DNA from: Candidatus Obscuribacteraceae bacterium
Lineage (GTDB): Bacteria > Cyanobacteriota > Vampirovibrionia > Obscuribacterales > Obscuribacteraceae
NCBI GenBank assembly: GCA_044229845.1
Contig: JBGASG010000016.1
Span: 1-50,414, forward strand
Direction: 5' to 3'
DNA: 50,414 nucleotides
Part shown: positions 4,189-34,302 of the stretch, piece after piece
How positions within the stretch are numbered: the stretch's first letter is position 1
Layout of the letters: each line of letters opens with the position of its first letter
The notes under the pieces: generated by a model
Databases searched by the model: none
What the model was told of the DNA's origin: nothing
The model's input: the letters and a program-made list of their open reading frames with translations, nothing else
Made by a program: the position numbers and the translations under genes

Positions 4189-7100
4189 TCAATGAAACGA
4201 GATGCTGCGCTCTTTCGTTTTACGCTGGACTTGCTTCATCACGAAGAACGTTTCCAATTCCGCTTGCGTACCTTCGTATTGGCTGAATTCTAGGTGACGC
4301 AGCCGTATGTGCGCATCATCTAGAACGGTGCTCAAGTTTTCACGCAACCGATCGTCATACAATTGATAGTTGTCGCTGTTCAGCGTCCAGCCGTCTATCT
4401 GCATCATGTGAAGCAGACCTTTCAGTTCCAGGCGTGTAAGCATCACATTGCTGCGAGGCATCTCCGGAACTATCACTCCTTCGGCTCTCAGTTTATTCGT
4501 GTGTTCGAGGAGCATTGCCATCCATTGCTCGCGTTGACCTTTTTGAATAGCCAGTCCGAATTCCGGGTTGGTTTGCAGCAAGTCGGTGAACACAGCGTCC
4601 CGCTTGTCAAAGTTCTCTCCCAGAAGATCATAACCGTAGATTTCCGTTCTGAAAGTCGGGTCCTTTTCGTCGGCCAGTCTCTTAAGAAATGCGTCCGGAT
4701 CATCACCGAAAAGCTCCTCCTTGCACAGACGCGGCAACTCGCTAATCTGCTTTTGCACAATCGCCATCGTTTCAGAATAGTCTCTTCCTTCTTTGAAGCT
4801 TTTGCGCAGCTTGTCAGCGCGGGCGTAAGCAGTGTCCTTCTTCAAGAGCTTAGCATCGAGGTTGACGCGCTCTTCGATCCACTTGCGATTGTCTGCACGA
4901 GAAAATACTGAGGTGGCCCAACCGAGTTCGGTCGATCTGTCGCCAGAGGAATTTTTGCCTGTCGCCTCCAGATATGCCTTCACGATATCGTACTGAACCT
5001 TGATGTTGGAGAGCGCCGCCATCCGCTCTGCAGGCGGTACTCTTTGCAGCAAGTCGACGGCGGTGGCATTCAGCATCGCCTTGTCCTGCTCGGCATGGAA
5101 GAACTCGTGATAAACGACTCCGATGAACTCAGGGTCGGGTCGAAGCAAATCGCTGCTGCGCACAAATATTGTGTTGGTGCCTGCCAGGTGAGTGGCGCGC
5201 GCGTTCATCTGAATCAATAACTTGTCATTCACAACTATATTTATCGGCGGCATTCCAAGCTTGTGCTCGTGTCCGAAGTCGCTTACTAGCTGTGCCAATT
5301 CTGGAGTCCGTTTTTTCAGCACCGCCTCGACGATGGCGCTATCTTCCATTTGACTGATGGCGGGCCACTTTTTCATCACCTCATAACTGCGGCTGATGAA
5401 GTCATCCGCCACCTCATCTCTAATTAGTGGATGGTCGATTATTGTTTCTGTGCCGTCCTCTTTTATCACGCGCTCACGCAGTCTAAGTTTGCCTTCCAGA
5501 AATGTTTTGAGCTGCTGCTCGCTCAAGTTGGAGATGTCGATGGGCTTTCCGGTATCTCCCTCCTGGTTCAACATCGGATTGGCGGTGCGTTTGTACTCTT
5601 CGAGCATCGCCTCCTCATCAGCGGTGCGAGGCAGCCTTTCACCGCTCAGCATCTGACGCGTCTTGCACTCTTTGAGAGACTCTTCTGCCGCAGCTTTCCA
5701 CTGCTCAACAGTCATTCCAGGCTCATACTTCGCGACGCCGACTGCAAAAGAAACTGGAATCTCCAATTTGCGTTGTCCAAAGACCTCTAGCGCTTTGCCG
5801 GTCAGTCCATCGAGGTTAACCTCACGCAATTCAGAAATGGATTCGATTGGTCTGATACCATCTGGTCCGACTGCCAGTAAGAATTCGCCGGCCGCATTTA
5901 GCAATCTCGACACATCGTTGGCATGTCGGGCAACAATGAGCGCGGCCAGACCCTGCGATCCCACTAAGTCTCCCTGCCGCGTTATTTTCCGAACATGGTC
6001 TCCTTCGTACATCAAGACATCGTCCCCAGTTGCGTGTCCCGCACCGTCATTTGCGAGCTTGAAGTGGTTGGGATCAAGTTTCACGAGTGTCGGTTGTAGC
6101 TGGTGACGGTTCGCGTGGGCAACTTCCTTTTCAAGGGCTATATCGGTGTAGAACTCCGTCAAAAGCTTGTGAGCCGGATGTTCTACCGCGAATCTTTCGA
6201 AGAACTTGTGACCCTCGATCAGGACTTGTTTGTACGTTCGTATCTCCGCATCGTTCAGCTTGCGTGATCTGAAGTCTTTCGAGCGCTCGTTCAGTTCTCG
6301 ATAGAAGCCGAGTTGATTCTCTCTCTCTCGTTGAGCTGGAGTTGGTAGCTCCGCCGGTGGCAATACCGACTGGTCATAGAGAATTTGATTGCTGTGGCCC
6401 GCTTGCTTGTTCATGTACATAGCCTTGTCGGACGCTTCGATAAATTCGGACACTGACTGACCAGGCTTCCAATAGACAGCACCAACTGTGACGGTGACCA
6501 TGTTGCCTTTTATATGATTGCCCTCAGCATCCAGGACGAGATTGCCTTTGCTGTCTTTGAGGAAGGGTTCGAAGGTCTCACCGGGCTTCAATAAATAAGG
6601 ATCGTGGCCCGGATAGGCGACGCATTTCAACTCAGCAACCGGGCGCCCAACTGCTGCAGGATCGAGACAGTCCCTGAGGATTGTCACGTACTCGTCGCCG
6701 CCGAAGCGTCCGAATGTGTCCTCAGTGCGAGTGCGCGCTTGAATGGTTTCGGAGATTAGTTTGAGAACCTTGTCGCCCTGCTCCTTGCCTTGAGCCGCGT
6801 TGAGGTCGCCCAGTTTGGTGACGTCCTTGAAGAGCAGGCAAGGCGGTTTGTACTTGACGAAACGATTGCCTGCCTCGTCCACGCCCATAATGGTGCCGTC
6901 TTCCTCAATAGGTCCGCGGCGCTTGTATTCCTCGATGTAATCGAGAAGCTGGCGCTGAATGCCCGGTTTGTTCGGCGCGCCGGTAGCCGGATCGATTTCC
7001 GCTTTGTTCTGCGCCGTCCTGAATTTTTGCTCCCAGTAATGAACTGGAACATCCCGCACTATCTCCACACCCAACTTGCCGGCGTAGGAGCCGGCGGTCA

Positions 7101-10100
7101 CCACAGGCGCGGTCAGCGCGCTGTCTAAGGCGGCTTGCTGCATGTCTGCGAAGATGTTGTAGTAGTTGCCGTGCCGCGCCATGAATTCGTCGGACACTAT
7201 CTCGACTGGCAGCCTGGTTTTTCCGGACACTCGCATTCGCTCAGCCTGCACTGCCTGTGGTGCCGCATCGAGCCCACCGTAGAAGAAGTTGTTGACGGCG
7301 TTGGTCGGCAGGTGCTCCGCCATGTGTTCTCCGAATCGGCCGAGCGGACTGGTCATGTGCCACTGCGGGACAAACGGTGTGCCTCCGGCTTTTTGCACAG
7401 CCAGAAGCTGCGGCTCGGTCAGTTTGCCCCAGCTCGTCAGTCCGCGCATCGTTGCACTGGCGTACTCGCCACCGAGCATCCAGGTGCTGCTCATCATCCA
7501 GTTTTGCACAGTAAACTCAGAAGATTGCGGTTCGCGCAGTGCGTGCGCGCCCATGAACAGAGTCGATTGCATCATCGCGTTGGTAGGTCTGACCAATCCC
7601 GGCACCACATCGGCGACGAATCTGTTTCTGGACATGACGTCGACTGTGCGGCTCAGCATCGTGTATCTGGCTAACATCTCTGCCTGCTGCGGTGTCAGCG
7701 TCCCGGCGACTTTCGCTGCCTTCAGCGCTTGCAACTCTTTGCCGAGTTGGGCGAGTCTGCCGCCGCCTGCCATTGCCAGCGCTTCCATGCCTCCGGAGAG
7801 CACGTTCATCCCGTCTTGCGAAAACGTGTTTTGTTCGCGGTGCCGCACCATCCCCGACACCAGTCCGCCACCGACCACGCTCACTCCCAGTTCGGTGCCG
7901 ACGGCGGTCATTCCGGTCAAGCCGGCGGCGCTGACTGCGGAGCCCGCACCAGCTGTCACTATCGACACCAGAGTGATCACCGCCACGTTGTCTGCCTGCT
8001 TTTGCGTCTGCGTCGCTTCGCCGGCACGCTTCAGAACATCTTGCGACGAAACATTCATGTCGTTGCAGAACCGGTCGAGCGCGACGGTGTTGTGGTCGAG
8101 ATGGTTGTTGGTGATTTTGAGTTCCAGTCCGTCACCGAAGAGCTGGCTCACTTCTTTGTTGGCGGCGCCCATCTCTTTCTCAATCGTGGAAAGAATGGCA
8201 TCCATCTGTCCTTCTTGATCGCCTTTATACCAGTTGGCGGTGGTGCCGAGGACCCAGGACTTCTCGCGGAAGTACTGCATATTGCCGTTTTCGGCGGCGT
8301 CTTTAGCGCGGCGCATTTCTTGGATCACCTGGTCGGCATCCACCAGTCCGCCGGCATTGAATCTTCCGTCTGCTTCAGTGCGGGCATGTCCTCGCCCGAA
8401 GATGCGATATTGATGATCGTCACCCGCGGTTTTGAACTCAATTACTACTTGATTCTGATTGCGCAGATCGATCTCGCGTCCATCGACCTTGATCTTGTAA
8501 TTGGGCTCCCAGCTGCCGCAGAGATCGCCTTCCACCAGCTGCCCGTCCTGCATGCTCATGCGACGCAACTTGCCTTGCTCAATTTTGAACAGGTCTTCGC
8601 CGAGCCTCATTGTGCCGTCCGTTCTCGTACACTGCTCAGCAGTCAGTTCCTTCAAGGGCAACACCGTAGGCGGTGGTTGTTTCTCCCTGTAATACTCAGC
8701 CCGAACGAATTGTCGCGGACCTCCTTCGACCAGTTCGAGGGCGGAACCGGCAGCAACTGTCCCGTCCGCATTTATTGGAATGCCTTCTTTAACTGCTTTG
8801 TCCAGCCCGTCACGATACCTGATCGTCAATTTGATCGTGCGGTCCAATGCCTGCCCGGCTTCTTCCGTTTTGGACTGATTGTGAATTTGATTGGCATAAT
8901 TCAGCTCGCTCTGCATCTTCTCCTTCAGATCGTGCTCGCTGCGAATTTGACCACCACGGGTGGTGAACCAATTTGATTCTTCTTGCTTGCCGTCTTTCTG
9001 GTACGTGAAGTGCCACACGGCACCAGGCACTTCCTTCATGTTTGAATGAATGACCTGACCGCGGGCGTCAAGAAACTTGAGACTGCCGTCGCGCGGATCG
9101 ATAGATCCGATGGCGTTGTCGGAGCCCGGTTTGTAGAGGAGGTTTTGTTTGATCTCAACCCTGGCGACGCCGTCCTTGCTTTTCGCGTCGGGCAGCCAGC
9201 CATAGCCGTCAACAGGACCCGTGATACTTTCGAGTTTGTACACGGGATGGTCCATACGGGACCGCAGACGAATCAGCGAATCATCGCCCGCCAGCAAGTT
9301 GTTGTCGCGCGCCATCTGGGAATTGAGTTTGCGCAATACGTCCGGCGTCACCACGCCGGTTGTGACTATCTCATCGTGAAGTGCGCGCGCGCGCGTCTGT
9401 GCTTTCACGGACAGGTCAATGGTGACTTTGTCTTCTTCCGTTCCGCCCGATTGTTTCACCGCCTCATCGTGCCATTGCGCAGTCAAGGCGAGGGAGTGGT
9501 TGAGGTTGATCAGTCCGCCGCCGTAGCCATCGGGTCCGTCGCCCGGTCCCAGTGAAAGTCCGCTTACCGTTCTGCCCGATGCCTGACCCTGGATGTGTAC
9601 ATCAAAGACTAGATTCGGGATGCTCCCCAGCGGTACTACCCGCGGTGGATTGCCCATGACCAGCGACCCGCCTTCCAGCCTGTCGCCCAAGTCAGCCGGC
9701 GGCACGTACTTGGCTATCTGTTCACCGGATTTGGTATCAATCACGGCCCCCAGCCTGATTGTGTATTCCATCGGCGGCAAAAGATTGCCGTTTGCATCCA
9801 GCTTTGGCTGTCCGGTCTGTGCATCTAACTGCGGAATGAATATGCGCCCCGTGGAAAGGTTATCGACGTCGAACTGCAACGGTTTGCCGTTTTGATTTCC
9901 GTTGAAGACATAGCCGTCTTTGAGAATGCTGTTGAGATCGGTCCCCGCATCTTGTCGAGGTTCTCTGTCATTTGGGAACGTCACTTTTCCGAATTCATCG
10001 ACGTGACCGATGAATTGGTTGTGTTCGTCGAACATGTTGCCGCCGACGACGAGTACTTCGCCGGAGGGAACACCATCAGGTGAGTATTGGGCAAGCACGC

Positions 10101-11739
10101 CGTTGAGACCTTCGTGTCTGTCGACGCCGTCGCCTTGCCCGGCGCAAAGATCCAGGCGCTCGCCATCGCTGCCCAAACCGTGGAACCCCGCGCCCGCATC
10201 CTTGTCATTGACGATATTGAAAGTCCTGGGAGGCGGTCCGTTGAGCGCGACGTCGCCGTTGTCCTTCATGGTACCGATTGCGGTATCAGACTTGTCGAAG
10301 ATGATGCCTTTATCGACGCGTCCCTGCGCATAGCCATCGGCGTCTTTCCAGACCGCAACTCCAGTGCCGCGATCTCCCTCGCGAGGCGGAGTGGGAGCCA
10401 GGTCTTCGCGCGCTTCTTTATCTGTGAGCGTGCCGACTGTGTACTCGTTCTTGAGAGTGGCGACGGAGAGAAACGCGAATGCGAGAAGCTTGTCCTCGGG
10501 CAAAAGTCCGGTCGTGTCGCCGTGCACTTTCAGCGGCTTGCCTATTTCATCGAATGAGAACTGCAGCTCGCCGTTGAGTGTCGAGTCCTTGTATTCCATA
10601 CCGACAGGCTTGCCGGTAGCATCGAAGGTGCAATTGGTTGTGGCGACGGTTTTACCGCCCTTGATCTGCTCGAGTATGACCGACTGGATGCCCTGCTGCA
10701 GATCGAGCGTTTTGACGCATCGGCTATCGAGACGCGACACGCCGTCTTCGAGGTCGAAACGTTCGTGGGTTTCGACCAGACTTCCGCCTCGCTCTGCATA
10801 TGAAATTTCCTCGCGCACGCGAGGCTTGTCCAGTTCCATGCGTTGTGCGTCATCGAATATCTTAGTTTCGACCGGGCGGTTGCATTCATCCAATTGGACG
10901 GCGACCACCGGCATGTCTTTTGGTGATTGCCCGTCCTTTGGTGTTATGTGTTGGTATTCGATTCTGCCGTAGGCTGTTCCATCGTTTCTCATCAAAGTCT
11001 TGTCGACGCGCAGCCCGTCCATGGTGCTGCGCGTCACGGACTGGTGCCCATCCGGACTTACCTCGTGACGCACGTGCAATTCCGTACCCAGTGGTGTATC
11101 ACCGCGCACGGTGCGCAATGTTTCTCGGTACGCCGCCACCATGTTGCCGGTTTTTTGATCGATGCGCAGCTGGACGCCGTCAGTTGCTTCCAGGCGTGCC
11201 ACCATGTTCCAGGAGGAATTGTCGACGACGGCAATCGCCTTCGGTTTGGTGGCATCGCTGCCCTCTCCGTAGACGATTGTGGTGATTAAACCACTTTTGC
11301 TCTCAATCTCGTTAATGCGTCCCTGTTCGTCATAGCGGAACTGGCGTCCCGTCTTCTTGTCGAAATAGTCGGTGACGCCCTTCTGCGCCCGCGCCTCAGG
11401 GGTCATCTTGTCGGCGTTTTCCGCGGTTTTGTGCGGTCTGTCTACGCCCAGGAGCTGTTTGCCCTTGTTTTCCAGGGCGTGTTTAATGTTTGAGAAACTG
11501 AACTTGTCGTCTTTGACCGCCACCGCCGGACTGGGGGCGTCCTTTGCTTTCGACTCGTCCGTGTTGGCGCGCACGGGGGCGTCCTTTTCCTTTTGGGCAG
11601 CGGGTGTCCCGGAGCCGTAAACCTCCGTGTGTGCCGGTTCGCTCTTGCGTGCGCCGCCGTCGCCAGTTGCCTCTTTCGTGGCATCGTTGCCCTTCTTGCC
11701 CGCCTCGCCCTTTTTAGCGTTATCCTTGCTCTCGTTCAT
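4189..11739 (-). CDS. Giant 2516-aa multidomain effector-like protein: YD/beta repeats, hydrophobic hairpin, GGDEF + degenerate GGDEF, HExxH zinc metallopeptidase
   Basis: FRYDEQGRINEI; VAVITLVSIVTAGAGSAVSAAGLTG…GVSVVGGGLVSG; RTEDTFGRFGGDEY (6688-6702); DPNHFKLANDGAGHATGD; VVYHEFFHAEQ (5095-5109). Confidence 0.85.
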   Translation of the reverse strand: MNESKDNAKKGEAGKKGNDATKEATGDGGARKSEPAHTEVYGSGTPAAQKEKDAPVRANTDESKAKDAPSPAVAVKDDKFSFSNIKHALENKGKQLLGVDRPHKTAENADKMTPEARAQKGVTDYFDKKTGRQFRYDEQGRINEIESKSGLITTIVYGEGSDATKPKAIAVVDNSSWNMVARLEATDGVQLRIDQKTGNMVAAYRETLRTVRGDTPLGTELHVRHEVSPDGHQSVTRSTMDGLRVDKTLMRNDGTAYGRIEYQHITPKDGQSPKDMPVVAVQLDECNRPVETKIFDDAQRMELDKPRVREEISYAERGGSLVETHERFDLEDGVSRLDSRCVKTLDLQQGIQSVILEQIKGGKTVATTNCTFDATGKPVGMEYKDSTLNGELQFSFDEIGKPLKVHGDTTGLLPEDKLLAFAFLSVATLKNEYTVGTLTDKEAREDLAPTPPREGDRGTGVAVWKDADGYAQGRVDKGIIFDKSDTAIGTMKDNGDVALNGPPPRTFNIVNDKDAGAGFHGLGSDGERLDLCAGQGDGVDRHEGLNGVLAQYSPDGVPSGEVLVVGGNMFDEHNQFIGHVDEFGKVTFPNDREPRQDAGTDLNSILKDGYVFNGNQNGKPLQFDVDNLSTGRIFIPQLDAQTGQPKLDANGNLLPPMEYTIRLGAVIDTKSGEQIAKYVPPADLGDRLEGGSLVMGNPPRVVPLGSIPNLVFDVHIQGQASGRTVSGLSLGPGDGPDGYGGGLINLNHSLALTAQWHDEAVKQSGGTEEDKVTIDLSVKAQTRARALHDEIVTTGVVTPDVLRKLNSQMARDNNLLAGDDSLIRLRSRMDHPVYKLESITGPVDGYGWLPDAKSKDGVARVEIKQNLLYKPGSDNAIGSIDPRDGSLKFLDARGQVIHSNMKEVPGAVWHFTYQKDGKQEESNWFTTRGGQIRSEHDLKEKMQSELNYANQIHNQSKTEEAGQALDRTIKLTIRYRDGLDKAVKEGIPINADGTVAAGSALELVEGGPRQFVRAEYYREKQPPPTVLPLKELTAEQCTRTDGTMRLGEDLFKIEQGKLRRMSMQDGQLVEGDLCGSWEPNYKIKVDGREIDLRNQNQVVIEFKTAGDDHQYRIFGRGHARTEADGRFNAGGLVDADQVIQEMRRAKDAAENGNMQYFREKSWVLGTTANWYKGDQEGQMDAILSTIEKEMGAANKEVSQLFGDGLELKITNNHLDHNTVALDRFCNDMNVSSQDVLKRAGEATQTQKQADNVAVITLVSIVTAGAGSAVSAAGLTGMTAVGTELGVSVVGGGLVSGMVRHREQNTFSQDGMNVLSGGMEALAMAGGGRLAQLGKELQALKAAKVAGTLTPQQAEMLARYTMLSRTVDVMSRNRFVADVVPGLVRPTNAMMQSTLFMGAHALREPQSSEFTVQNWMMSSTWMLGGEYASATMRGLTSWGKLTEPQLLAVQKAGGTPFVPQWHMTSPLGRFGEHMAEHLPTNAVNNFFYGGLDAAPQAVQAERMRVSGKTRLPVEIVSDEFMARHGNYYNIFADMQQAALDSALTAPVVTAGSYAGKLGVEIVRDVPVHYWEQKFRTAQNKAEIDPATGAPNKPGIQRQLLDYIEEYKRRGPIEEDGTIMGVDEAGNRFVKYKPPCLLFKDVTKLGDLNAAQGKEQGDKVLKLISETIQARTRTEDTFGRFGGDEYVTILRDCLDPAAVGRPVAELKCVAYPGHDPYLLKPGETFEPFLKDSKGNLVLDAEGNHIKGNMVTVTVGAVYWKPGQSVSEFIEASDKAMYMNKQAGHSNQILYDQSVLPPAELPTPAQRERENQLGFYRELNERSKDFRSRKLNDAEIRTYKQVLIEGHKFFERFAVEHPAHKLLTEFYTDIALEKEVAHANRHQLQPTLVKLDPNHFKLANDGAGHATGDDVLMYEGDHVRKITRQGDLVGSQGLAALIVARHANDVSRLLNAAGEFLLAVGPDGIRPIESISELREVNLDGLTGKALEVFGQRKLEIPVSFAVGVAKYEPGMTVEQWKAAAEESLKECKTRQMLSGERLPRTADEEAMLEEYKRTANPMLNQEGDTGKPIDISNLSEQQLKTFLEGKLRLRERVIKEDGTETIIDHPLIRDEVADDFISRSYEVMKKWPAISQMEDSAIVEAVLKKRTPELAQLVSDFGHEHKLGMPPINIVVNDKLLIQMNARATHLAGTNTIFVRSSDLLRPDPEFIGVVYHEFFHAEQDKAMLNATAVDLLQRVPPAERMAALSNIKVQYDIVKAYLEATGKNSSGDRSTELGWATSVFSRADNRKWIEERVNLDAKLLKKDTAYARADKLRKSFKEGRDYSETMAIVQKQISELPRLCKEELFGDDPDAFLKRLADEKDPTFRTEIYGYDLLGENFDKRDAVFTDLLQTNPEFGLAIQKGQREQWMAMLLEHTNKLRAEGVIVPEMPRSNVMLTRLELKGLLHMMQIDGWTLNSDNYQLYDDRLRENLSTVLDDAHIRLRHLEFSQYEGTQAELETFFVMKQVQRKTKERSISFH

Positions 11740-11961: not shown

Positions 11962-12486
11962 CTACTTCCTGCGCGGCTGTCCTTCGCAAAGTTTGCCGTA
12001 AACGACGCGCTGCAAATCGCCGGGGATAAAGCGCTGCACCATATTGGGTGGCAGATCCTGCCCTTCGGTCAATAGGTTGACCATCGTTTCGAATTGTGCT
12101 GACTTGAGTGTCAATGCTGTCTGCGGACGCAATTGCCCACGCTCGACGAGGTCATTGATATCGTTGGTGGTTTGCCTGCTCGCCCAGTTCTTGATCTGCT
12201 GGCCAGTCAATTCGAATGGGCCGACCGTCGCTGGGTTGCCATCGACGCCAGCGCGTGTGCGGTAATACACCGGATCATCCAACTCGGGAGCCTTGCCGAA
12301 CATTCCGACCGGATACACTTCGATGGGGCGACCACCGCCGCCCTGCTGGCGCTCGTCGACGGCGCGCTCGCCCGGTCCAGGACCGCCGCTGCTGCGCGCG
12401 TCAGGAAGGCTGTCACCGGCACCATTGGGGTCTTGTTCCCCACTGCATGCGAATCTTGATTTTCCAGCATCGTTATCGAAACCCAT
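11962..12486 (-). CDS. Hypothetical protein with Gly-rich disordered N-terminus
   Basis: 174-aa ORF co-oriented with, and lying between, the two large genes; GGGG purine tract before ATG. Confidence 0.65.
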   Translation of the reverse strand: MGFDNDAGKSRFACSGEQDPNGAGDSLPDARSSGGPGPGERAVDERQQGGGGRPIEVYPVGMFGKAPELDDPVYYRTRAGVDGNPATVGPFELTGQQIKNWASRQTTNDINDLVERGQLRPQTALTLKSAQFETMVNLLTEGQDLPPNMVQRFIPGDLQRVVYGKLCEGQPRRK

Positions 12487-12551
12487 ATCTACCCCTATCT
12501 GTTCCCACTAATTTCACTGAAGCAAAAATATTCCTCGGCATCCCCAGGCAT

Positions 12552-15500
12552 CTAATGATTCCCGCACATACAGCCCGGGTCGTGTGACGGCAGCACAGTA
12601 GCGTCCGGAGTGTTTTGCTTGTTCTGAAGCTTACCGCCTCCGGGTTTTACCTCGTTTGAGTGTTTTGTTCGTTGTTGCTGTTGTTGCTGCAATTTTTGTT
12701 GTTCTGCCGCCGCTCGTGCCGCCGGCAATGTTGCTTCGAAGTCAGCGACCGCCTTGCGATTGGCCTCGTTGTTTTCTCCAACCGTTCCGTCGGGCAGTCT
12801 GATGTACTTGGAAGTGCCGTCGGGATTTCTTCCATATCTCGGGTCGGAGTCCAGTTCGGCCTGGTCGAACTTCTTCGTCGACTCGTAGTTTTTCGGATCG
12901 ACGACATACAACCTCGTGCGGTCCGCGACCGACGACCTGTAGTTGCGAATCGACTCCGCGCTGCCTTCCCACGGGCGGGTGAAATAGTCTTTGACGCTGC
13001 TTGGTTTGACGTCGGCATTATCACGCATTTGCGAGTTGCTCTGGTTGGCTGCCTGCGGGTCGCCCCAGCCGCTGGCGAGCGTGCCGTCGGTCTTCAGAGG
13101 ACGTCCCTGGTCGTCGACACGAGTCCATGTTCCATGCCACGGTTGATCTGGACCTTGCGCCCAGTACTTGCCGTCCTTATCCCTGAATTGCCACTGCTCG
13201 CCACCATCAGGCGTGCTCACCTTGCGGTAGCCAAGTTCAGCGTAGTGTCTGTCGAGAGCCGCTTTGTCACGGGTCTCCATCGTGTGTTGCGCGTTATGCG
13301 CCCACTCGTGCAAGATGTTGTCTTTGATGATCGTGTAATCGCGTTGCACAGGCTCGAAGAGAATGCGCTGTTGGTCGCCTTTGGGCAGTACGTATGCAGC
13401 TGCGGCGGAAGTCGGTTCTACGGCGAATTGAACCAGTATGGGTTTGCCGTTCAGCGTCGTGGTGCTCGGTTGCGATTTCGCCAGTCCCTCCTCCATCGCC
13501 ATCAATTCGTTGACGCGCGGGCTTCTGAGGTTTACTTCGCGACCCAACGGCGAGTCTTTCTGTCCGTCGCGACTGAACTGGACGTTGTACTTCTGTTCCA
13601 GCTCCTTCATCTTGGTGTCTTGCCATTCTTTGAGACGTCGCTCAACCTCAGCCGGGTTGTCGCTGTTGGTATCTAGAACTGGCAGTTTGGCGCCGTTTTC
13701 GCCTTCTACGTAGTACTTGCGAACAGTGGTGCCGTCGGGTTGTTTGACCTCGTCGAACTTGACACCATATTTCGCATTGAGACTATCAAGGGTGGGAGCT
13801 CTATCGGTGAGCGCTCGCTCCAGTTTCTTCAGCTGGTCTTCAGGGAAGCCGCCTTTCTGCAGATCGTCGATAGCTTGCTGCTGGATGTCGTCCATCTTGT
13901 TGAGCGGAACACCCTGCTGACGAGCACGCTCTCTGAACTCGTCGATCAACTTGTTTGCCTTCGCGACATCTTCCGGGCGATCGAAGTTTTTGAGAACCTC
14001 GGTGCGCAGGTGCGACTCGGTAAGCAGATCGAGGGCTTCCGCGGTGTTGCCGCGCTTGAGCGGATTCCATTCTTGACCGCGTAACTTGTCCGAGAGGGAC
14101 TGACCGTACATTTTTTTGTACTGCTCGTCCAACGCCACTCGATCTTGGTGAGACATACTTTTGAGCGTGTCTTTGAGATCCGAATTGGTGGTGAAGAACC
14201 AGTTCGTCTCGTGCATTTTTGCTGCAATCGCGCGCAACTCGGCTTCAGTCTTGTCGGTGGTAGTCCGGTTGCCGCTGGTGTAATCGGTCTGGATCTTGCC
14301 GTTTTTGTCGGTGTACTGGAGAGTGCCGTCCGGTTTCACAGAGACGTGATCGATGGTAGAGCCGTCTGCCGCCGTGAAGCTGCCGAAACGAATGACGCCC
14401 AGTAAATCCAAGGTCGCCTTGTAGTTGTATTCTTTTCCGTCTGCGTCGGTTACGCGGTTCAGTCTGCCCCAGCCGTCGTACCCGAAAGTAGCTCGCCGTC
14501 CGTCTGGATAGGTGACCTCGGTGACGTTGCCGTCTGCGTTCTTCTTAACGAACGATCCGTCACCTTTGGCGGTGTTCGACGTGCGGTCTGTGAGTGTGGT
14601 GACGACATTGTTCTGCGCGTCGGTAATCGTAAAGGAACCATCCCTGCCGACCCGCGGATTTTTCATGCCGGTGGACTTGCCGTCTGGTCCCCAGACTTCG
14701 CCGAGATCGCGGACATCATAGCGCTTGCCGTTTTCGGTGTAGGACCTCAGTTTGCCGGTGGTGTCATACGAGAACGTGCGCGTGTCGCCATTCGGATACC
14801 TGACTTCGGTGACCCGGTCTTTATCGTCCGACTTGATGACGGCACCGTCCTTGGTGGTGACCTCTTTGGTGCCGTCCGGCGGTATTTTTACTTTGCTGCC
14901 GTCGTTGGTTTCGTAGGTGAAGGTGCCGTCGGCGGCGACTGCGGGATTTTTAAAATCCAGATCGCGGGGTGCACTGTAGCGGCCATTATCGCTGGGGGCG
15001 AAAATGCCTCCGCCGATGCCCGCGGCGGCGGCACCGGCATCCGTCCCCGGGCTGGAGCCCGGTTTCGGGTTGGGCGGCTGCTCACCAGGCCTTTGCTTTT
15101 GTTCAATCGACCATTTGCCGTCGGCGCCCAGCACATAGACCTGCCCGTCCGGCTGGACAATGCGGTTCATTTGACCCGAATTGGGGTCATAGCCGAACTG
15201 GCGGGTGCGCCCATCGGGATATGAAACCTCAGTGACTCGCCCTTTGTCGTCGGTTTTAATGTTCTTGCTGGTGTCGGTGCCGTCTGTGAGGGCGAACTTG
15301 ACGGCCTGTTCCAGAGCGGCGCCCACTTTGGCGCCCACTTCGAAGGCGGTCGGTTCCACAAAGCCGGCGGCGAAGCCCATCAGATCGACGGACGGAAAGC
15401 CGTTCGGTAATTTGGCGGCGCCATCGTTGTTGGACTTTAGAAGGTCGGTGTTGGCTTTCGAGGTCAGGTCACTGGCATTGGTCAAAGCGGCATCAGTGCT

Positions 15501-15620
15501 CGTCACGGCGAGCACGTCCGCCCTCTCCAGACGAGGGTCAGCGCCCACCTGCGGCGGATCGACAGTGTCCTCAGCCGGGTGCGGCCGTTTTACCACAGTT
15601 TCCGAAACTTCGGAGCCCAT
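12552..15620 (-). CDS. YD/RHS-repeat protein with annexin-like segment and HExxH zinc metallopeptidase domain
   Basis: Three modules of type GRVTEVSYPDGRTRQFGYD; LKSMSHQDRVALDEQYKKMYGQSLSDKL; ILHEWAH (13296-13310) with downstream YFTRPWEGSAE. Confidence 0.85.
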   Translation of the reverse strand: MGSEVSETVVKRPHPAEDTVDPPQVGADPRLERADVLAVTSTDAALTNASDLTSKANTDLLKSNNDGAAKLPNGFPSVDLMGFAAGFVEPTAFEVGAKVGAALEQAVKFALTDGTDTSKNIKTDDKGRVTEVSYPDGRTRQFGYDPNSGQMNRIVQPDGQVYVLGADGKWSIEQKQRPGEQPPNPKPGSSPGTDAGAAAAGIGGGIFAPSDNGRYSAPRDLDFKNPAVAADGTFTYETNDGSKVKIPPDGTKEVTTKDGAVIKSDDKDRVTEVRYPNGDTRTFSYDTTGKLRSYTENGKRYDVRDLGEVWGPDGKSTGMKNPRVGRDGSFTITDAQNNVVTTLTDRTSNTAKGDGSFVKKNADGNVTEVTYPDGRRATFGYDGWGRLNRVTDADGKEYNYKATLDLLGVIRFGSFTAADGSTIDHVSVKPDGTLQYTDKNGKIQTDYTSGNRTTTDKTEAELRAIAAKMHETNWFFTTNSDLKDTLKSMSHQDRVALDEQYKKMYGQSLSDKLRGQEWNPLKRGNTAEALDLLTESHLRTEVLKNFDRPEDVAKANKLIDEFRERARQQGVPLNKMDDIQQQAIDDLQKGGFPEDQLKKLERALTDRAPTLDSLNAKYGVKFDEVKQPDGTTVRKYYVEGENGAKLPVLDTNSDNPAEVERRLKEWQDTKMKELEQKYNVQFSRDGQKDSPLGREVNLRSPRVNELMAMEEGLAKSQPSTTTLNGKPILVQFAVEPTSAAAAYVLPKGDQQRILFEPVQRDYTIIKDNILHEWAHNAQHTMETRDKAALDRHYAELGYRKVSTPDGGEQWQFRDKDGKYWAQGPDQPWHGTWTRVDDQGRPLKTDGTLASGWGDPQAANQSNSQMRDNADVKPSSVKDYFTRPWEGSAESIRNYRSSVADRTRLYVVDPKNYESTKKFDQAELDSDPRYGRNPDGTSKYIRLPDGTVGENNEANRKAVADFEATLPAARAAAEQQKLQQQQQQRTKHSNEVKPGGGKLQNKQNTPDATVLPSHDPGCMCGNH

Positions 15621-29605: not shown

Positions 29606-31387
29606 TTGGAAGGCAGCACTCATCATCCAGAACCTCTGGAGCGCTTTTGGGCGCTGATGAAAATCGATTCGCGCGATTTGTCTATCCTCGTCAGCTACAC
29701 GATGGTGACCGGATTGCTTTCTCTAGCGGTGCCACTCGCTGCTCAAGCGGTAGTGAACACCATAGCAGCCGGCATTTTCTTTCAACCGCTGGTCGTGATG
29801 ACGGCATTACTGTTTGCCGGACTGCTGCTGGTTGCGGTCTTGAGAATGTTCAAGCTGCGGTTGGTTGAAACATTGCAACAACGTTTTTTTGCCCGGGTAG
29901 TGATGCAACTTGGCTCCCGTATTCCAAAAATTCAGACGCAGGCGCTCTCAAAAGAATATATACCTGAATTGGTCAATCGGTTCTTTGACGTGATGACCGT
30001 TCAAAAGTCTTGGGGGAAGCTGCTGTTAGACGTACCGGCGTCGCTTTTGCAGATAACAATCGGCCTTTTCTTGATGGCACTCTACAGTCCGTGGCTTTTG
30101 GCTTTTGACTTTGCGATTATCGCTTTCATATTGATCTGCTCGACGGTCCTCGGGGTTGGTGGTATCAAAACCAGCATTCACGAGTCGCATGAGAAGTATC
30201 GGGTGGCTGAATGGTTGGAAGACCTTGGTCGTTGCCACATAAGCTTCAAAACGCATGGGTTTCCTCGGTTCATCCTCGAAAAATCCGACCAGCTGGTCAT
30301 GAACTATTTGGATGCACGTCGGTCACACTTTGCTGTGCTTTTCAGGCAATCTTTCAGTACTTATCTCTTTCAAGCCTTGGCTGGTACCGGCATTTTGGCC
30401 ATCGGAGGTTGGCTCGTAATCAATCGCCAACTGACACTGGGACAGCTTGTCGCAGCAGAGCTGGTAGTTTTGAACGTTCTTTCCGCTCTCGAAAAACTTA
30501 TACGCAACTGCGACACCTATTACGACCTGCTAACAGGACTGGATAAGGTTGGACATCTCACGGATTTACCGCTCGAGCGGAGAATTGGCAATGAAATCAC
30601 TGATGCCAACGGTGGAGCTGAAGTCGCGATTCACAAAGTTTGCTTTAGTTACACTGAAATTTCCGTTCTAGCCGACGTCAATTTGGTTATTAAAGCCGGC
30701 GAGAGAGCCAGTCTTGTCGGCGCGAGCGGAGCGGGGAAGACGACTCTCGCCCACATCCTGTGCGGACTCCTCGAGCCTGACTCTGGTGCCATCGAGTTCG
30801 CCGGAGTGGACATTCGTGATCTAAGTCTTCCGGCAATGCGGCGACATATTGGTTTCGTCGGCGATGCGAATGAAATATTCGAAGGCACCATTGAAGAAAA
30901 TATCCGGATGGGCCGTGACTTCGTGACTCACAAAGATGTCAGATGGGCGCTCAGCGTCTCGCGACTAAATGACGAGATAGCACGCCTTCCGGATGGTGCG
31001 CAGACGCAGCTCATAGCGAGCGGAAAAAATCTCTCCAGAGGACAGGTCCAGCGCCTTCTGATTGCACGAGCCATTGCGCACCGTCCTGCCCTCTTGATTC
31101 TCGATGAAGCATTTACAGGAATCGACGAGAAAACGAAAATTGCCATCGTCGAGCAGCTTCTGGATAGCAACAATCCCTGGACTCTGGTAGACATCTCGCA
31201 TGATGCCGAAGTTGTGAAACGCTCAGATCAAGTTTACGTCTTAGCCGATGGGCAGATCGCTGAATTTGGCTCACCGGCCGCTTTGTCCTGGCGGTCCGAT
31301 AGCGAGTTTTCTACTTTGTTTCCCGAGCTCGCTACTGACGTTCGCAGGACAGAGCGACGCAAAGAAGTTCGAAATACAGGTAAATGA
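29606..31387 (+). CDS. Type I secretion/export ABC transporter, permease + ATPase (no C39 domain evident)
   Basis: TM domain ending LTLGQLVAAEL; Walker A GASGAGKT; signature LSRGQ; Walker B LLILDEA. Confidence 0.93.
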   Translation: MEGSTHHPEPLERFWALMKIDSRDLSILVSYTMVTGLLSLAVPLAAQAVVNTIAAGIFFQPLVVMTALLFAGLLLVAVLRMFKLRLVETLQQRFFARVVMQLGSRIPKIQTQALSKEYIPELVNRFFDVMTVQKSWGKLLLDVPASLLQITIGLFLMALYSPWLLAFDFAIIAFILICSTVLGVGGIKTSIHESHEKYRVAEWLEDLGRCHISFKTHGFPRFILEKSDQLVMNYLDARRSHFAVLFRQSFSTYLFQALAGTGILAIGGWLVINRQLTLGQLVAAELVVLNVLSALEKLIRNCDTYYDLLTGLDKVGHLTDLPLERRIGNEITDANGGAEVAIHKVCFSYTEISVLADVNLVIKAGERASLVGASGAGKTTLAHILCGLLEPDSGAIEFAGVDIRDLSLPAMRRHIGFVGDANEIFEGTIEENIRMGRDFVTHKDVRWALSVSRLNDEIARLPDGAQTQLIASGKNLSRGQVQRLLIARAIAHRPALLILDEAFTGIDEKTKIAIVEQLLDSNNPWTLVDISHDAEVVKRSDQVYVLADGQIAEFGSPAALSWRSDSEFSTLFPELATDVRRTERRKEVRNTGK

Positions 31388-31390
31388 TTC

Positions 31391-32803
31391 ATGACGCAAA
31401 GTACACCAACTGCTAAGCAGAACATGGTCTACGAGCCAAGATGTTTGCAACTTGTCGCAACAGGCAGGTCGGCGGAATTTGTCGCACTGTCTCTCTGGTT
31501 CGCTGTGTTCGCCTCGATCTTAGGCGCCATGTTCGTGCCATGGCAGCAATCGATTGCTGGAATCGGACAAGTGATTATCTTTTCGCCCATGGAAAGGCCT
31601 CAAAACATAGAAGCTCAAATACCGGGTCGCCTGGTGAGCTGGCATGTCCGAGATGGTGAGATGGTCAAAAATGGTCAGTTTATCGCCGAGCTGACTGATC
31701 TAGATCCGAAGTTCCTCGACCCCAATCAGTCCGCTAGACTTCAAGACCAGCGCGCGGCCCTAATAGCAAGGAAGGAAGCGGCGAAGAATAGACTTCGGGC
31801 CCTGGAGACCCAATATGGCAATTTGAAGAAATCCCAGCAAGCCGCTGTGCCATCTGCTGGCGAACGTGCAAAGCAGGCCACCAACAGAATTTCGCAAGCA
31901 GAACAGACTCTTGTTGCAGCGAAGCAGAATGAAGTCACTGCCGATCTCAACTTGAAGCGGATCGATGACCTCTTTGGCAAAGGACTGCGCTCCAAACGGG
32001 ACCTGGAGTTGGCCCAGTTCGAAATGGCGAGAGCAAAGACTGAGGTTGAAAGAGCCATAGCCGCAGTTGATATTGCCAGGCGCGATGAAACAGTAGCAGG
32101 TCTTGACCAAAACAAAATCGTGGCCGACACGGAAGCTGCTATGAGCAATGTTGCCGCTACCATGGCTCAAGTGCAAGAGACGATTGAGTCGATCACGACC
32201 GATCTATACAAGTTGGACATAGATATAGGCAATCTGACCAGACGCGTTGCTCAAAGAAGAGTAATCGCGCCTTGTTCCGGGCGAATCGTAAAATTGCTCA
32301 AAGTGGGAGCCGGTTCGACTGTCGATGCCGGAAGTCTCCTGGCTGTCATTGCACCTTCGACGCAGGACTTGGCTGTGGAGTTATTGATCAGCGATAACGA
32401 TGCTCCTCTTGTTAGCGTGGGCAGGCCTGTGCGATTGCAATTTGCCGGTTGGCCGGCTTTACAGTTTGCTGGATGGCCGTCGATTGCGGTGGGCACATTT
32501 GGTGGACGTGTGGCAGTGGTGGACGCTGTGGACAATGGCAAAAACAGCTATCGCGTCATAGTTAAACCCGATTGGCAGGCCATCCGGGAGGGAAAAGACG
32601 AACCCTGGCCTAAAGCTGATTTCCTGCGACCCGGCGCCGAAGCCAGCGGTTGGATCATGCTTGATACCGTCTCGCTCGGATTCGAGCTGTGGCGGCAGTT
32701 CAATGCTTTCCCGCCGACGATCAAGCCAGAGGAGTTGGGACTAAGTCATACAACTTCGGAAGACAAAGGTAGTTCGCCCGACATCAAGCGAAAGAGTAAG
32801 TAG
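31391..32803 (+). CDS. HlyD-family membrane fusion protein
   Basis: Single TM, lipoyl-like halves (IEAQIPGRLVSWHVRDGEMV; VIAPCSGRIV), long coiled coil, VRLQFAGWPA. Confidence 0.93.
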   Translation: MTQSTPTAKQNMVYEPRCLQLVATGRSAEFVALSLWFAVFASILGAMFVPWQQSIAGIGQVIIFSPMERPQNIEAQIPGRLVSWHVRDGEMVKNGQFIAELTDLDPKFLDPNQSARLQDQRAALIARKEAAKNRLRALETQYGNLKKSQQAAVPSAGERAKQATNRISQAEQTLVAAKQNEVTADLNLKRIDDLFGKGLRSKRDLELAQFEMARAKTEVERAIAAVDIARRDETVAGLDQNKIVADTEAAMSNVAATMAQVQETIESITTDLYKLDIDIGNLTRRVAQRRVIAPCSGRIVKLLKVGAGSTVDAGSLLAVIAPSTQDLAVELLISDNDAPLVSVGRPVRLQFAGWPALQFAGWPSIAVGTFGGRVAVVDAVDNGKNSYRVIVKPDWQAIREGKDEPWPKADFLRPGAEASGWIMLDTVSLGFELWRQFNAFPPTIKPEELGLSHTTSEDKGSSPDIKRKSK

Positions 32804-32811
32804 GGCGATTT

Positions 32812-34302
32812 ATGCTCCTGAAGCAGCTCATTGTGCCACTAGCGTCGTTTCTGATGATCTCTGCGGGAGTATTGTCAGCCCGCGCTCAAGAGCAGTCTTT
32901 GCCGGCGCCAATTTACTTGCAGGAGTTTTCAAAAGAGAAGCCGCTCGGTTCGGTACGGCAGGATGCCAACGCCACACAATTAACGCTTCGGGGTTTCGTT
33001 CAGTCGATCGATTCCAATTTTCCAAAGCTTCTCAGTGCCGATGCTGAGCGACGCCTAGCGATCGCCAAATTGCTTGAGAAATCAGGCGCCTTCGATCCCG
33101 TACTTGTGCACCTCAGTGAATATCTGCGCGTCCAGGATATTTTTACCCCCGGCAAGGCAAAAGACGCCATCCACAATGAGTCGAGAGTCGACCTGTTGAC
33201 GCGGTCCGGCATGAAGGTGTTTGCCGGGATGCGCCTGAATCCGAACGATACGAAAACTCCATTCGTGCCTACCGGAAGCGCAGGTGAGTACTATGCCGGC
33301 ATGTCTGTCCCGCTACTGCGAGGGCGAGCCGTTAACGAGAAGTCCATTGCTGAAACCCAGGCTCGGCTAAGTCAACCTGTAGCTCAACAGATTTACCTTG
33401 CTGCGCGGATGGAGATTCTGATGAAAGCCGCCGGAGTTTACTGGGAGTGGCTTGGTGCGAAGTCGCGATTGCAAGTAGCTAACAGTTTGCTGACGATTGC
33501 AGAACAGCGTGTAAGTCAGATCAGGGAGAGGGTCAACAGTGGTGACGCACCAGCTCTGGAAATCATCGAAGCCGAACAAGAGATAGAGAGGCGAAAAGCT
33601 GGAGTGGTCAAAGCTCAAAGGGATCTTGAGAAGACCAGTATCCAGATGTCTGTTTATTTGTGGCGGCCAAATGTGACACCGGATACGGTACCGTCGCTGG
33701 ATGCTATGCCAGACCTGACTCCCTTCCCTCAAAAAGTTGCTGTTGAAACATGGACTGCGGCGCGAAAGTTAGCCATTATGGTGCGCCCTGAGCTCAAGCG
33801 GATTGCCGCCGAGCGAAAAATTTTACAAGCGGAACTGCAGCTAGCAAAAAACCAGCTGCTTCCTGTTATGGATGCTTACGCGCTTCAAGGAGCCGACACC
33901 GGCAAGAACGGAATCGGTCCGATTGTACGAGGAGGGGTTAATATCTCGATTCCGTTGAGACAACGAACTGCTCGTGGATTGGTACTGGCCGCTGAGACCC
34001 GATTGCAAAAACTCACTTTCGATGAGGCCGCAGAACGGCAACGGATTACAGCTGAAGTCGATGATGTGGTCTCAGCAATCAATACATCTTTCGATAAATT
34101 CATGGCGGTGAACGCTGAAGTGAACAAGGCGCGGTCGGTCGAAAATGGTGAGAAGCTGCGGTTTGCTGCCGGTGACAGTACATTGTTTCTGGTTAACCAG
34201 AGAGAACGTGCAACCGCTGAGGCGCGAGTTCGCCTGATTGACGCTCATGTGGAGTATTTGCAAGCATTGACAGCTTTCGACATTGTAACTTGCAAGCTCT
34301 AG
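32812..34302 (+). CDS. TolC-family outer membrane efflux protein
   Basis: Signal peptide, SVPLLRGR, coiled-coil repeats, RFAAGDSTLFLVNQRE; third gene of the tripartite operon. Confidence 0.92.
   Translation: MLLKQLIVPLASFLMISAGVLSARAQEQSLPAPIYLQEFSKEKPLGSVRQDANATQLTLRGFVQSIDSNFPKLLSADAERRLAIAKLLEKSGAFDPVLVHLSEYLRVQDIFTPGKAKDAIHNESRVDLLTRSGMKVFAGMRLNPNDTKTPFVPTGSAGEYYAGMSVPLLRGRAVNEKSIAETQARLSQPVAQQIYLAARMEILMKAAGVYWEWLGAKSRLQVANSLLTIAEQRVSQIRERVNSGDAPALEIIEAEQEIERRKAGVVKAQRDLEKTSIQMSVYLWRPNVTPDTVPSLDAMPDLTPFPQKVAVETWTAARKLAIMVRPELKRIAAERKILQAELQLAKNQLLPVMDAYALQGADTGKNGIGPIVRGGVNISIPLRQRTARGLVLAAETRLQKLTFDEAAERQRITAEVDDVVSAINTSFDKFMAVNAEVNKARSVENGEKLRFAAGDSTLFLVNQRERATAEARVRLIDAHVEYLQALTAFDIVTCKL

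Follow-up and report, generated by a model that had tools for sequence, protein, structure and literature searches.

Two GGDEF domains within a giant protein of 2516 aa have degenerated in a reciprocal manner, leaving one complete set of catalytic residues spread over both domains and a mirror set that is lost. Residue mapping, conservation across deep lineages, selection and a model of the domain pair together give good support to the core idea, already put forward in the original prediction, of a single chain with one composite active site. Judging from residues and model, it is very probable that the pair is an active one-site transferase, whatever its product (c-di-GMP or other). The more specific reading that we favor, to which we give a probability of ca. 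0.55, is a single-chain, one-site GTP nucleotidyltransferase that would make pppGpG and then, after re-binding in swapped orientation, c-di-GMP. No description of a reciprocally split GGDEF tandem was found in the open full-text literature.

A giant protein with two GGDEF domains

The gene is a single open frame on the minus strand (4189..11739) of the window, i.e., the whole stretch of DNA analyzed here, which is an entire contig of 50,414 bases from a 5.16-Mb, 88%-complete Obscuribacterales genome with 20 GGDEF matches. The protein has no N-terminal hydrophobic signal, and its 90% cluster includes a Candidatus Obscuribacterales member. Pfam recognized GGDEF twice and nothing else. PF00990 scored 90.3 bits over two stretches; in the genome search each domain by itself exceeded the curated cut-off, with 39.3 and 38.9 bits. 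All the parts described below are coded on the minus strand. The N-terminal core (ca. aa 100-1560, 7060..11442), putatively the delivery part, was delimited by comparison with relatives and is conserved in the family, with 25-42% identity to eight distant relatives across 1350-1640 aa. It gave zero Pfam or NCBIfam matches, its Atlas lead was weak (RHS/YD at 0.80, below the 0.9 mark), YD-like repeats around aa 120-410 are a by-eye judgement, and no paralogue was found in its own 88%-complete genome. Within it, a Gly/Ala-rich hydrophobic stretch (aa 1250-1330, 7750..7992) contains the only starts (aa 1251-1257) of 19-residue windows with hydropathy >1.5 and is a possible membrane anchor or translocation segment. 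GGDEF domain 1 (aa 1580-1790, 6370..7002) follows, then a linker (6181..6369) predicted as a helical hairpin (model helices 231-255 and 260-282) whose second helix continues into GGDEF domain 2 (aa 1854-2030, 5650..6180). The C-terminal zincin-like module (4192..5352) was recognized by its HExxH motif (HEFFH, aa 2211-15), which is found in most of the related giant proteins; Pfam gave no match here and the Atlas lead, LPD23 at 0.88, was below the 0.9 mark.

All six motifs quoted in the original prediction share the same minus-strand open frame, and the reciprocal degeneracy that it described held. They are KDVTKLGDLN (aa 1638-47), RTED (1671-74) and GGDEY (1680-84) in domain 1, and DPNHFKLANDGAGHATGD (1889-1906), RQGD (1921-24) and SQGLAAL (1928-34) in domain 2. 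Numbering was transferred by equal-length matches to PleD (2wb4) and DgcR (6zxm). In DgcR, as described in the available text of PMC8041772, D174, E217 and E218 bind metals, N182 and D191 read guanine, and K289 binds the gamma-phosphate; in the modeled competent dimer, K179 and metal M2 act on the substrate of the opposing domain, and the pairs D183-Y286 and H187-D282 form between subunits. Domain 1 of the giant protein retains D1639, N1647, D1656, the GGDEY loop, D1771, Y1775 and K1778. Besides the FK lysine, the absence of which was already claimed, the Asp of the ND motif and the His of GH are also missing, with G1644, A1648 and K1652 in place of the partner-acting K, D and H. Domain 2 retains D1889, K1894, N1897, D1898, H1902, D1906 and K2026, has SQGLAAL instead of the GGDEF loop, again as claimed, and additionally lacks the last-helix D and Y (E2019 and K2023) and the DxLT turn. 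The guanine-reading Asn and Asp are present in both domains (N1647/D1656 and N1897/D1906), which are 22% identical to each other.

We defined the composite site by eight residues, D174, E217, E218, D282 and Y286 from the domain holding the attacked alpha-phosphate and K179, D183 and H187 from its partner, with the residue sets from PMC8041772 and the cross-subunit pairs taken from that paper before the last helix was tabulated. If domain 1 is taken as the alpha-phosphate half, the protein has 8/8 of these residues, and 1/8 for the mirror site. The reciprocal pattern is therefore real rather than due to chance (one-sided Fisher p=0.0007, calculated per protein, the relatives being non-independent and amounting to about four deep lineages). 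The role of the fourth motif residue is disputed, as a general base for the partner's 3'-OH (PMC6456294) or a metal ligand (PMC8041772), in the available text of both; either role would serve the same bond. Contigs from other sequencing runs (X1, 5872-6126, and X7, 5962-6352) are identical to parts of domain 2, and since these independent runs match without differences, the loss of GGDEF is not an assembly error.

Conservation of the reciprocal pattern

Relatives were gathered from 107 genomes of the order, 401 of the class and a representative library. The order search matched 26 genomes at 1e-22, some via single ordinary GGDEF domains. The class search, in which the best three candidates per genome were scored, matched 16 genomes at E<=1e-24, all within the family of the window, and none of the 297 genomes of other families. 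Scanning genome and metagenome contigs for the pattern gave, among the matches listed, a single one spanning both domains in one piece (L049, titled Candidatus Obscuribacteraceae), and word-based protein searches gave at least two close relatives each. Within the family, 11 genomes have the reciprocal pattern (G000, G001, G018, G022, G055, G067, G069, G070, G073, G074 and G095). Once near duplicates had been excluded (G073, G074, G091, G093, P0018, P0080, P0151, P0159 and L049), 23 rows were left, which were classed by motif first, the tree serving as an independent check.

Eleven of the 23 rows are reciprocal, with 7-8 of the 8 residues in the direction of the query and 0-2 in the mirror. Another 11 are intact tandems, with 7-8 of 8 one way and mostly 7-8 the other way (five in G063). 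The last row, P0002, is mixed (6/8 and 5/8) and falls inside the reciprocal clade. Opposite polarity was found in 0/23 tandem rows. In the tree, the 11 reciprocal rows plus P0002 are on one side of a branch with 99/96 support when the trait columns are removed and 100/99 when they are kept, with four long-branched rows and an unsettled branching order within the clade. Because of these long branches and the unsettled order, one loss and several parallel losses look alike. The polarity is the same in 11/12 rows of this clade, P0002 being the exception, and the divergence is large, with two reciprocal rows 84-85% identical to the query and the other eight 21-26%. P0002 is also the closest of the distant relatives (42% identity over the N-terminal core and 33% over the rest), with GGDE in both domains, and is a possible intermediate state between intact and split tandems.

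Residue by residue, domain 1 of the 11 reciprocal rows has D174, N182, D191, E217, E218, D282 and K289 in 11/11 each and Y/F286 in 9/11, with H187 in 1/11 and D183 in 0/11; K179 is retained in 5/11, a point against the favored reading. Domain 2 has K179, N182, D183 and H187 in 11/11 each, D191 in 6/11 (Asn in the other five), K289 in 6/11, D174 in 4/11, D282 in 3/11 and Y/F286 in 0/11. The last-helix counts fit the cross-subunit pairs of the DgcR dimer model. Both domains are under purifying selection, domain 1 having a dN/dS against G001 of 0.15 and domain 2 one of 0.35, the highest in the protein.

Several tandems diverge in other ways. In a sister group (L024, L025, L027, L028, L029, L032 and P0021), the guanine-reading Asp of domain 2 is replaced by Asn and the metal Asp by Ser, making these proteins candidates for an adenine-accepting pocket. 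One tandem (L034, from G063) has a second domain with Ser at the base-reading position, Hypr-like, and GADEF. Finally, there is a separate set of tandem GGDEF proteins of 370-650 aa, to which 16 of the 21 library proteins in alignment A3 belong (P0076, P0053, P0043, P0033, P0038, P0010, P0027, P0042, P0125, P0051, P0058, P0095, P0019, P0117, P0108 and P0122). Their first domain is largely canonical, and the second keeps the GG(D/E)E loop and the Asn with K179 and D183 gone and H187 and Y286 nearly always gone. They do not fall into any named family and could represent either another asymmetric design or a sensor of GTP.

The predicted single site and its product

An AlphaFold model of aa 1571-2040 was built from a 41-row alignment (11 reciprocal, 9 intact and 21 other tandems, the last of which may pack differently). 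It had a pLDDT of 86 and a pTM of 0.78 over both domains; single-sequence folding gave a pLDDT of 36.6. A pTM of 0.78 across two domains of similar size suggests a defined relative position. Domain 1 matched GGDEF structures with Z up to 19.7 (rmsd 2-3 A) and domain 2 matched 4yme_A with Z 17.9; Foldseek with VIA re-alignment gave only single-domain GGDEF matches among those listed. One Cas10 protein, Cmr2 (4h4k_C), aligned loosely over both domains (220 residues, Z 8.8, rmsd 8.0, rank 47), a weak hint at similar packing; for a second Cas10 chain (9x25_B), the alignment covered domain 1 alone. From the pTM and this one loose alignment, face-to-face packing of the two domains seems likely. Each GGDEF domain is preceded by a helix that might do the job of the coiled coil in ordinary cyclase dimers. 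As a possible alternative arrangement, two chains could pair head to tail, with the composite site formed between them.

In the mechanism that we propose, domains 1 and 2 would face each other in the same chain and form a single active site. Domain 1 would hold the GTP whose alpha-phosphate is attacked and supply both metal ligands, and domain 2 would hold the GTP giving the 3'-OH and supply the lysine and two interface residues. One bond would form per binding event, giving pppGpG from two GTPs, a known intermediate of GGDEF enzymes (PMC6005682 and PMC6456294, in their available text). Because the mirror site is lost, the second bond could not form in place, and ring closure to c-di-GMP would need release and re-binding the other way round, with the triphosphate end moving into domain 1. 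In the clade, the triphosphate ligands of domain 2 are dispensable (D174 in 4/11 and K289 in 6/11), which fits a pocket that also takes a linked GMP, and their loss fits chain extension equally.

This design differs from that of the canonical GGDEF cyclases (PleD, WspR and DgcR; PF00990), with which it shares the fold of both domains, the guanine-reading equivalents of N182 and D191 in each, and one full catalytic and interface set. Canonical cyclases are described as two-fold homodimers with two equal sites and switched by sensors (PMC8041772, available text), whereas here there is one chain with one intact site and no recognized sensor domain. Both canonical halves carry GG(D/E)E(F/Y) with the metal ligands, but domain 2 has SQGLAAL; both also carry K179, D183 and H187, but domain 1 has G, A and K. 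The nearest known design is the Palm1/Palm2 pair of Cas10, a relative of the GGDEF fold. This is a pseudosymmetric site in one chain, in which one palm alone bears the acidic hairpin, the metals and the attacked nucleotide (PMC11734703, available text). Our protein may resemble Cas10/Csm1/Cmr2 in having two related palms in one chain around one asymmetric site, an arrangement that its residue pattern fits. The pair can be likened to the Cas10 palms, yet it is no Cas10 and does not have the two equal sites of canonical cyclases. Its domains are true GGDEF domains with guanine pockets, the motif-bearing domain comes first, the loop is GGDEY and not GGDD, the model is far more similar to GGDEF structures, and a CRISPR effector context is absent, with no Cas families among the 30 window ORFs scanned. 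We infer a separate origin from that of Cas10, out of an intact GGDEF tandem. The original prediction had drawn the analogy with the pseudo-heterodimers of class III cyclases; the Cas10 palms are nearer, and class III is kept as a distant parallel.

It had also proposed, as one possibility, a non-standard linear or mixed dinucleotide, and the mixed form is not supported for this protein. In the fold family, base-reading residues alter the product in the cGAMP synthase GacA, a Hypr GGDEF, and in the Panoptes protein OptS (mCpol), through changes in the base pocket and cross-subunit residues (PMC6456294 and PMC12657218, available text). Both of these enzymes are homo-oligomers, and the Hypr class is defined by Ser/Thr replacing the base-reading Asp (PMC6456294, available text). 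The giant protein has Asp at this position in both domains, and a Hypr-type product was rejected. Since both pockets are of the guanine type, with the Asn and the Asp, a mixed dinucleotide is unlikely; by analogy, relatives with Asn in the pocket are likelier sources of one.

The same single site might yield another end product, i.e., linear pppGpG, oligo-G or larger rings in the manner of Cas10, or a GMP transferred to another 3'-OH. We consider this unlikely, in spite of several points in its favor. A single site makes one bond per binding event, the same layout in Cas10 elongates chains (PMC11734703, available text), and the mirror site was lost and stayed lost though intact tandems exist in the family (11/23 rows). 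Besides, the Asn in domain 2 of 5/11 reciprocal rows indicates that the pockets have diverged. Against it, both pockets of this protein keep the N182 and D191 equivalents, which makes swapped re-binding sterically plausible. A doubtful, broader version would have the Cas10 design re-invented in Obscuribacteraceae, starting from a diguanylate cyclase, as a delivered, sensor-less GGDEF pair in a single chain. One of its pockets would serve the donor and the other the acceptor, and its product, other than c-di-GMP, would disturb the signaling of another cell. That product would be pppGpG, oligo-G or cyclic oligo-G here and mixed A-G in the Asn-pocket relatives, and the family would, on the same doubtful footing, retain intact, intermediate and split tandem states.

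Degenerate GGDEF domains acting as c-di-GMP receptors (I-site type) have a conserved RxxD and lost catalytic residues. A pair that makes nothing, and instead serves as a receptor, sponge or hydrolase by binding or cleaving c-di-GMP or GTP, would agree with the dead appearance of either domain on its own and with the RxxD found in both (RTED and RQGD), as originally noted. The motif is indeed there, but it is not a conserved feature of the reciprocal clade: RxxD occurs in 3/11 reciprocal rows in each domain, all three in the closest cluster of the query, against 10/11 and 11/11 in the intact tandems. We therefore rejected the I-site both as a family feature and as a receptor class for this pair, in which one catalytic set is kept in 11/11 rows. 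Mere binding would need no set of metal ligands plus partner lysine conserved in 11/11, and a non-synthesizing pair is improbable. Independent decay of both domains, or pairing of domain 1 with an ordinary cellular cyclase, is hardly credible: the 22% identity between the domains, and likewise to most relatives, the dN/dS of domain 2 and the 20 GGDEF matches of the genome would suit it, but purifying selection acts on both domains and the polarity is the same in 11/12 clade rows and opposite in 0/23.

Place of action and significance

A one-site cyclase in a single chain would not need to dimerize, an advantage for a protein that reaches another cell in few copies. Relatives sharing the N-terminal core of ca. 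1500 aa are 2458-11971 aa long and have variable C-terminal parts, with the HExxH module before or after the GGDEF tandem. Such a combination of a conserved N-terminal core and variable C-terminal enzyme modules is that of polymorphic toxins and polyvalent proteins. Other tandem-bearing giants include poly(A)-polymerase-like or annexin domains, and three giant frames have intact GGDEF tandems together with HExxH (G046:C5, 11,971 aa; G077:C42, at least 7,394 aa; and G014:C27, 6,848 aa). Polyvalent proteins are likewise described as large single chains that combine GGDEF with zincin-like modules and are proposed to work upon delivery (PMC5512222), and GGDEF domains are also reported in giant proteins of Omnitrophota and actinobacteria (bioRxiv 2023.11.21.568195). 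In the available text of these sources, no tandem, split site or Obscuribacterales is mentioned, nor is a tandem GGDEF in that of PMC13375341 and bioRxiv 2023.11.21.568195. In contrast to polyvalent proteins, no phage or conjugation families were found near the giant gene in the Pfam scan of the window ORFs.

The predicted action inside a target cell is suggested by the polyvalent-like architecture; markers of type III, IV, VI and contractile systems (PF03135, PF05943, PF04984 and PF01311) were not found in the 88%-complete genome. From the architecture, we put delivery into another cell at about even odds; about equally probable is a membrane-anchored enzyme acting in the producer cell. No immunity-like neighbor is conserved beyond the genus, the neighbors being conserved in G001 only. 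Metatranscriptome runs from three studies gave short contigs identical to parts of the giant gene, but these could stem from DNA carry-over.

Upstream of the giant gene (11962-15620), the window codes for a YD/RHS protein of 1022 aa, which has an HExxH motif too, and for an orphan of 174 aa. At C22:204771-208861, a paralogous set of RHS, orphan and hydrolase genes is found without a giant gene in between, and the giant gene may therefore have been inserted in the window or lost at C22. A Ser/Thr kinase gene lies within ca. 250 bases of the giant gene in 5/15 loci (L014, L228, L229-L230, L231 and L233); the genome has 112 kinase-like ORFs. Further along the window there are genes for an ABC transporter, an HlyD-like protein and outer-membrane efflux, resembling type I secretion (29606-34302, 18 kb from the giant gene), and, at the contig end (44924-50402), two tandem TPR-caspase (Peptidase_C14) genes with an integrase-core fragment.

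The catalytically competent GGDEF dimer has so far only been modeled, and what its cross-subunit residues do is under dispute. A natural one-site pair assigns these residues to one bond and could be trapped for structure; it also tests whether both bonds of c-di-GMP form successively at one site. It would be a living parallel of the passage from a symmetric cyclase to a Cas10-like asymmetric synthase, in which the pockets are free to diverge and may yield new nucleotides. A dimerization-free cyclase would, if true, be a useful tool, and the finding draws attention to giant proteins of Obscuribacteraceae as a so far unstudied family.
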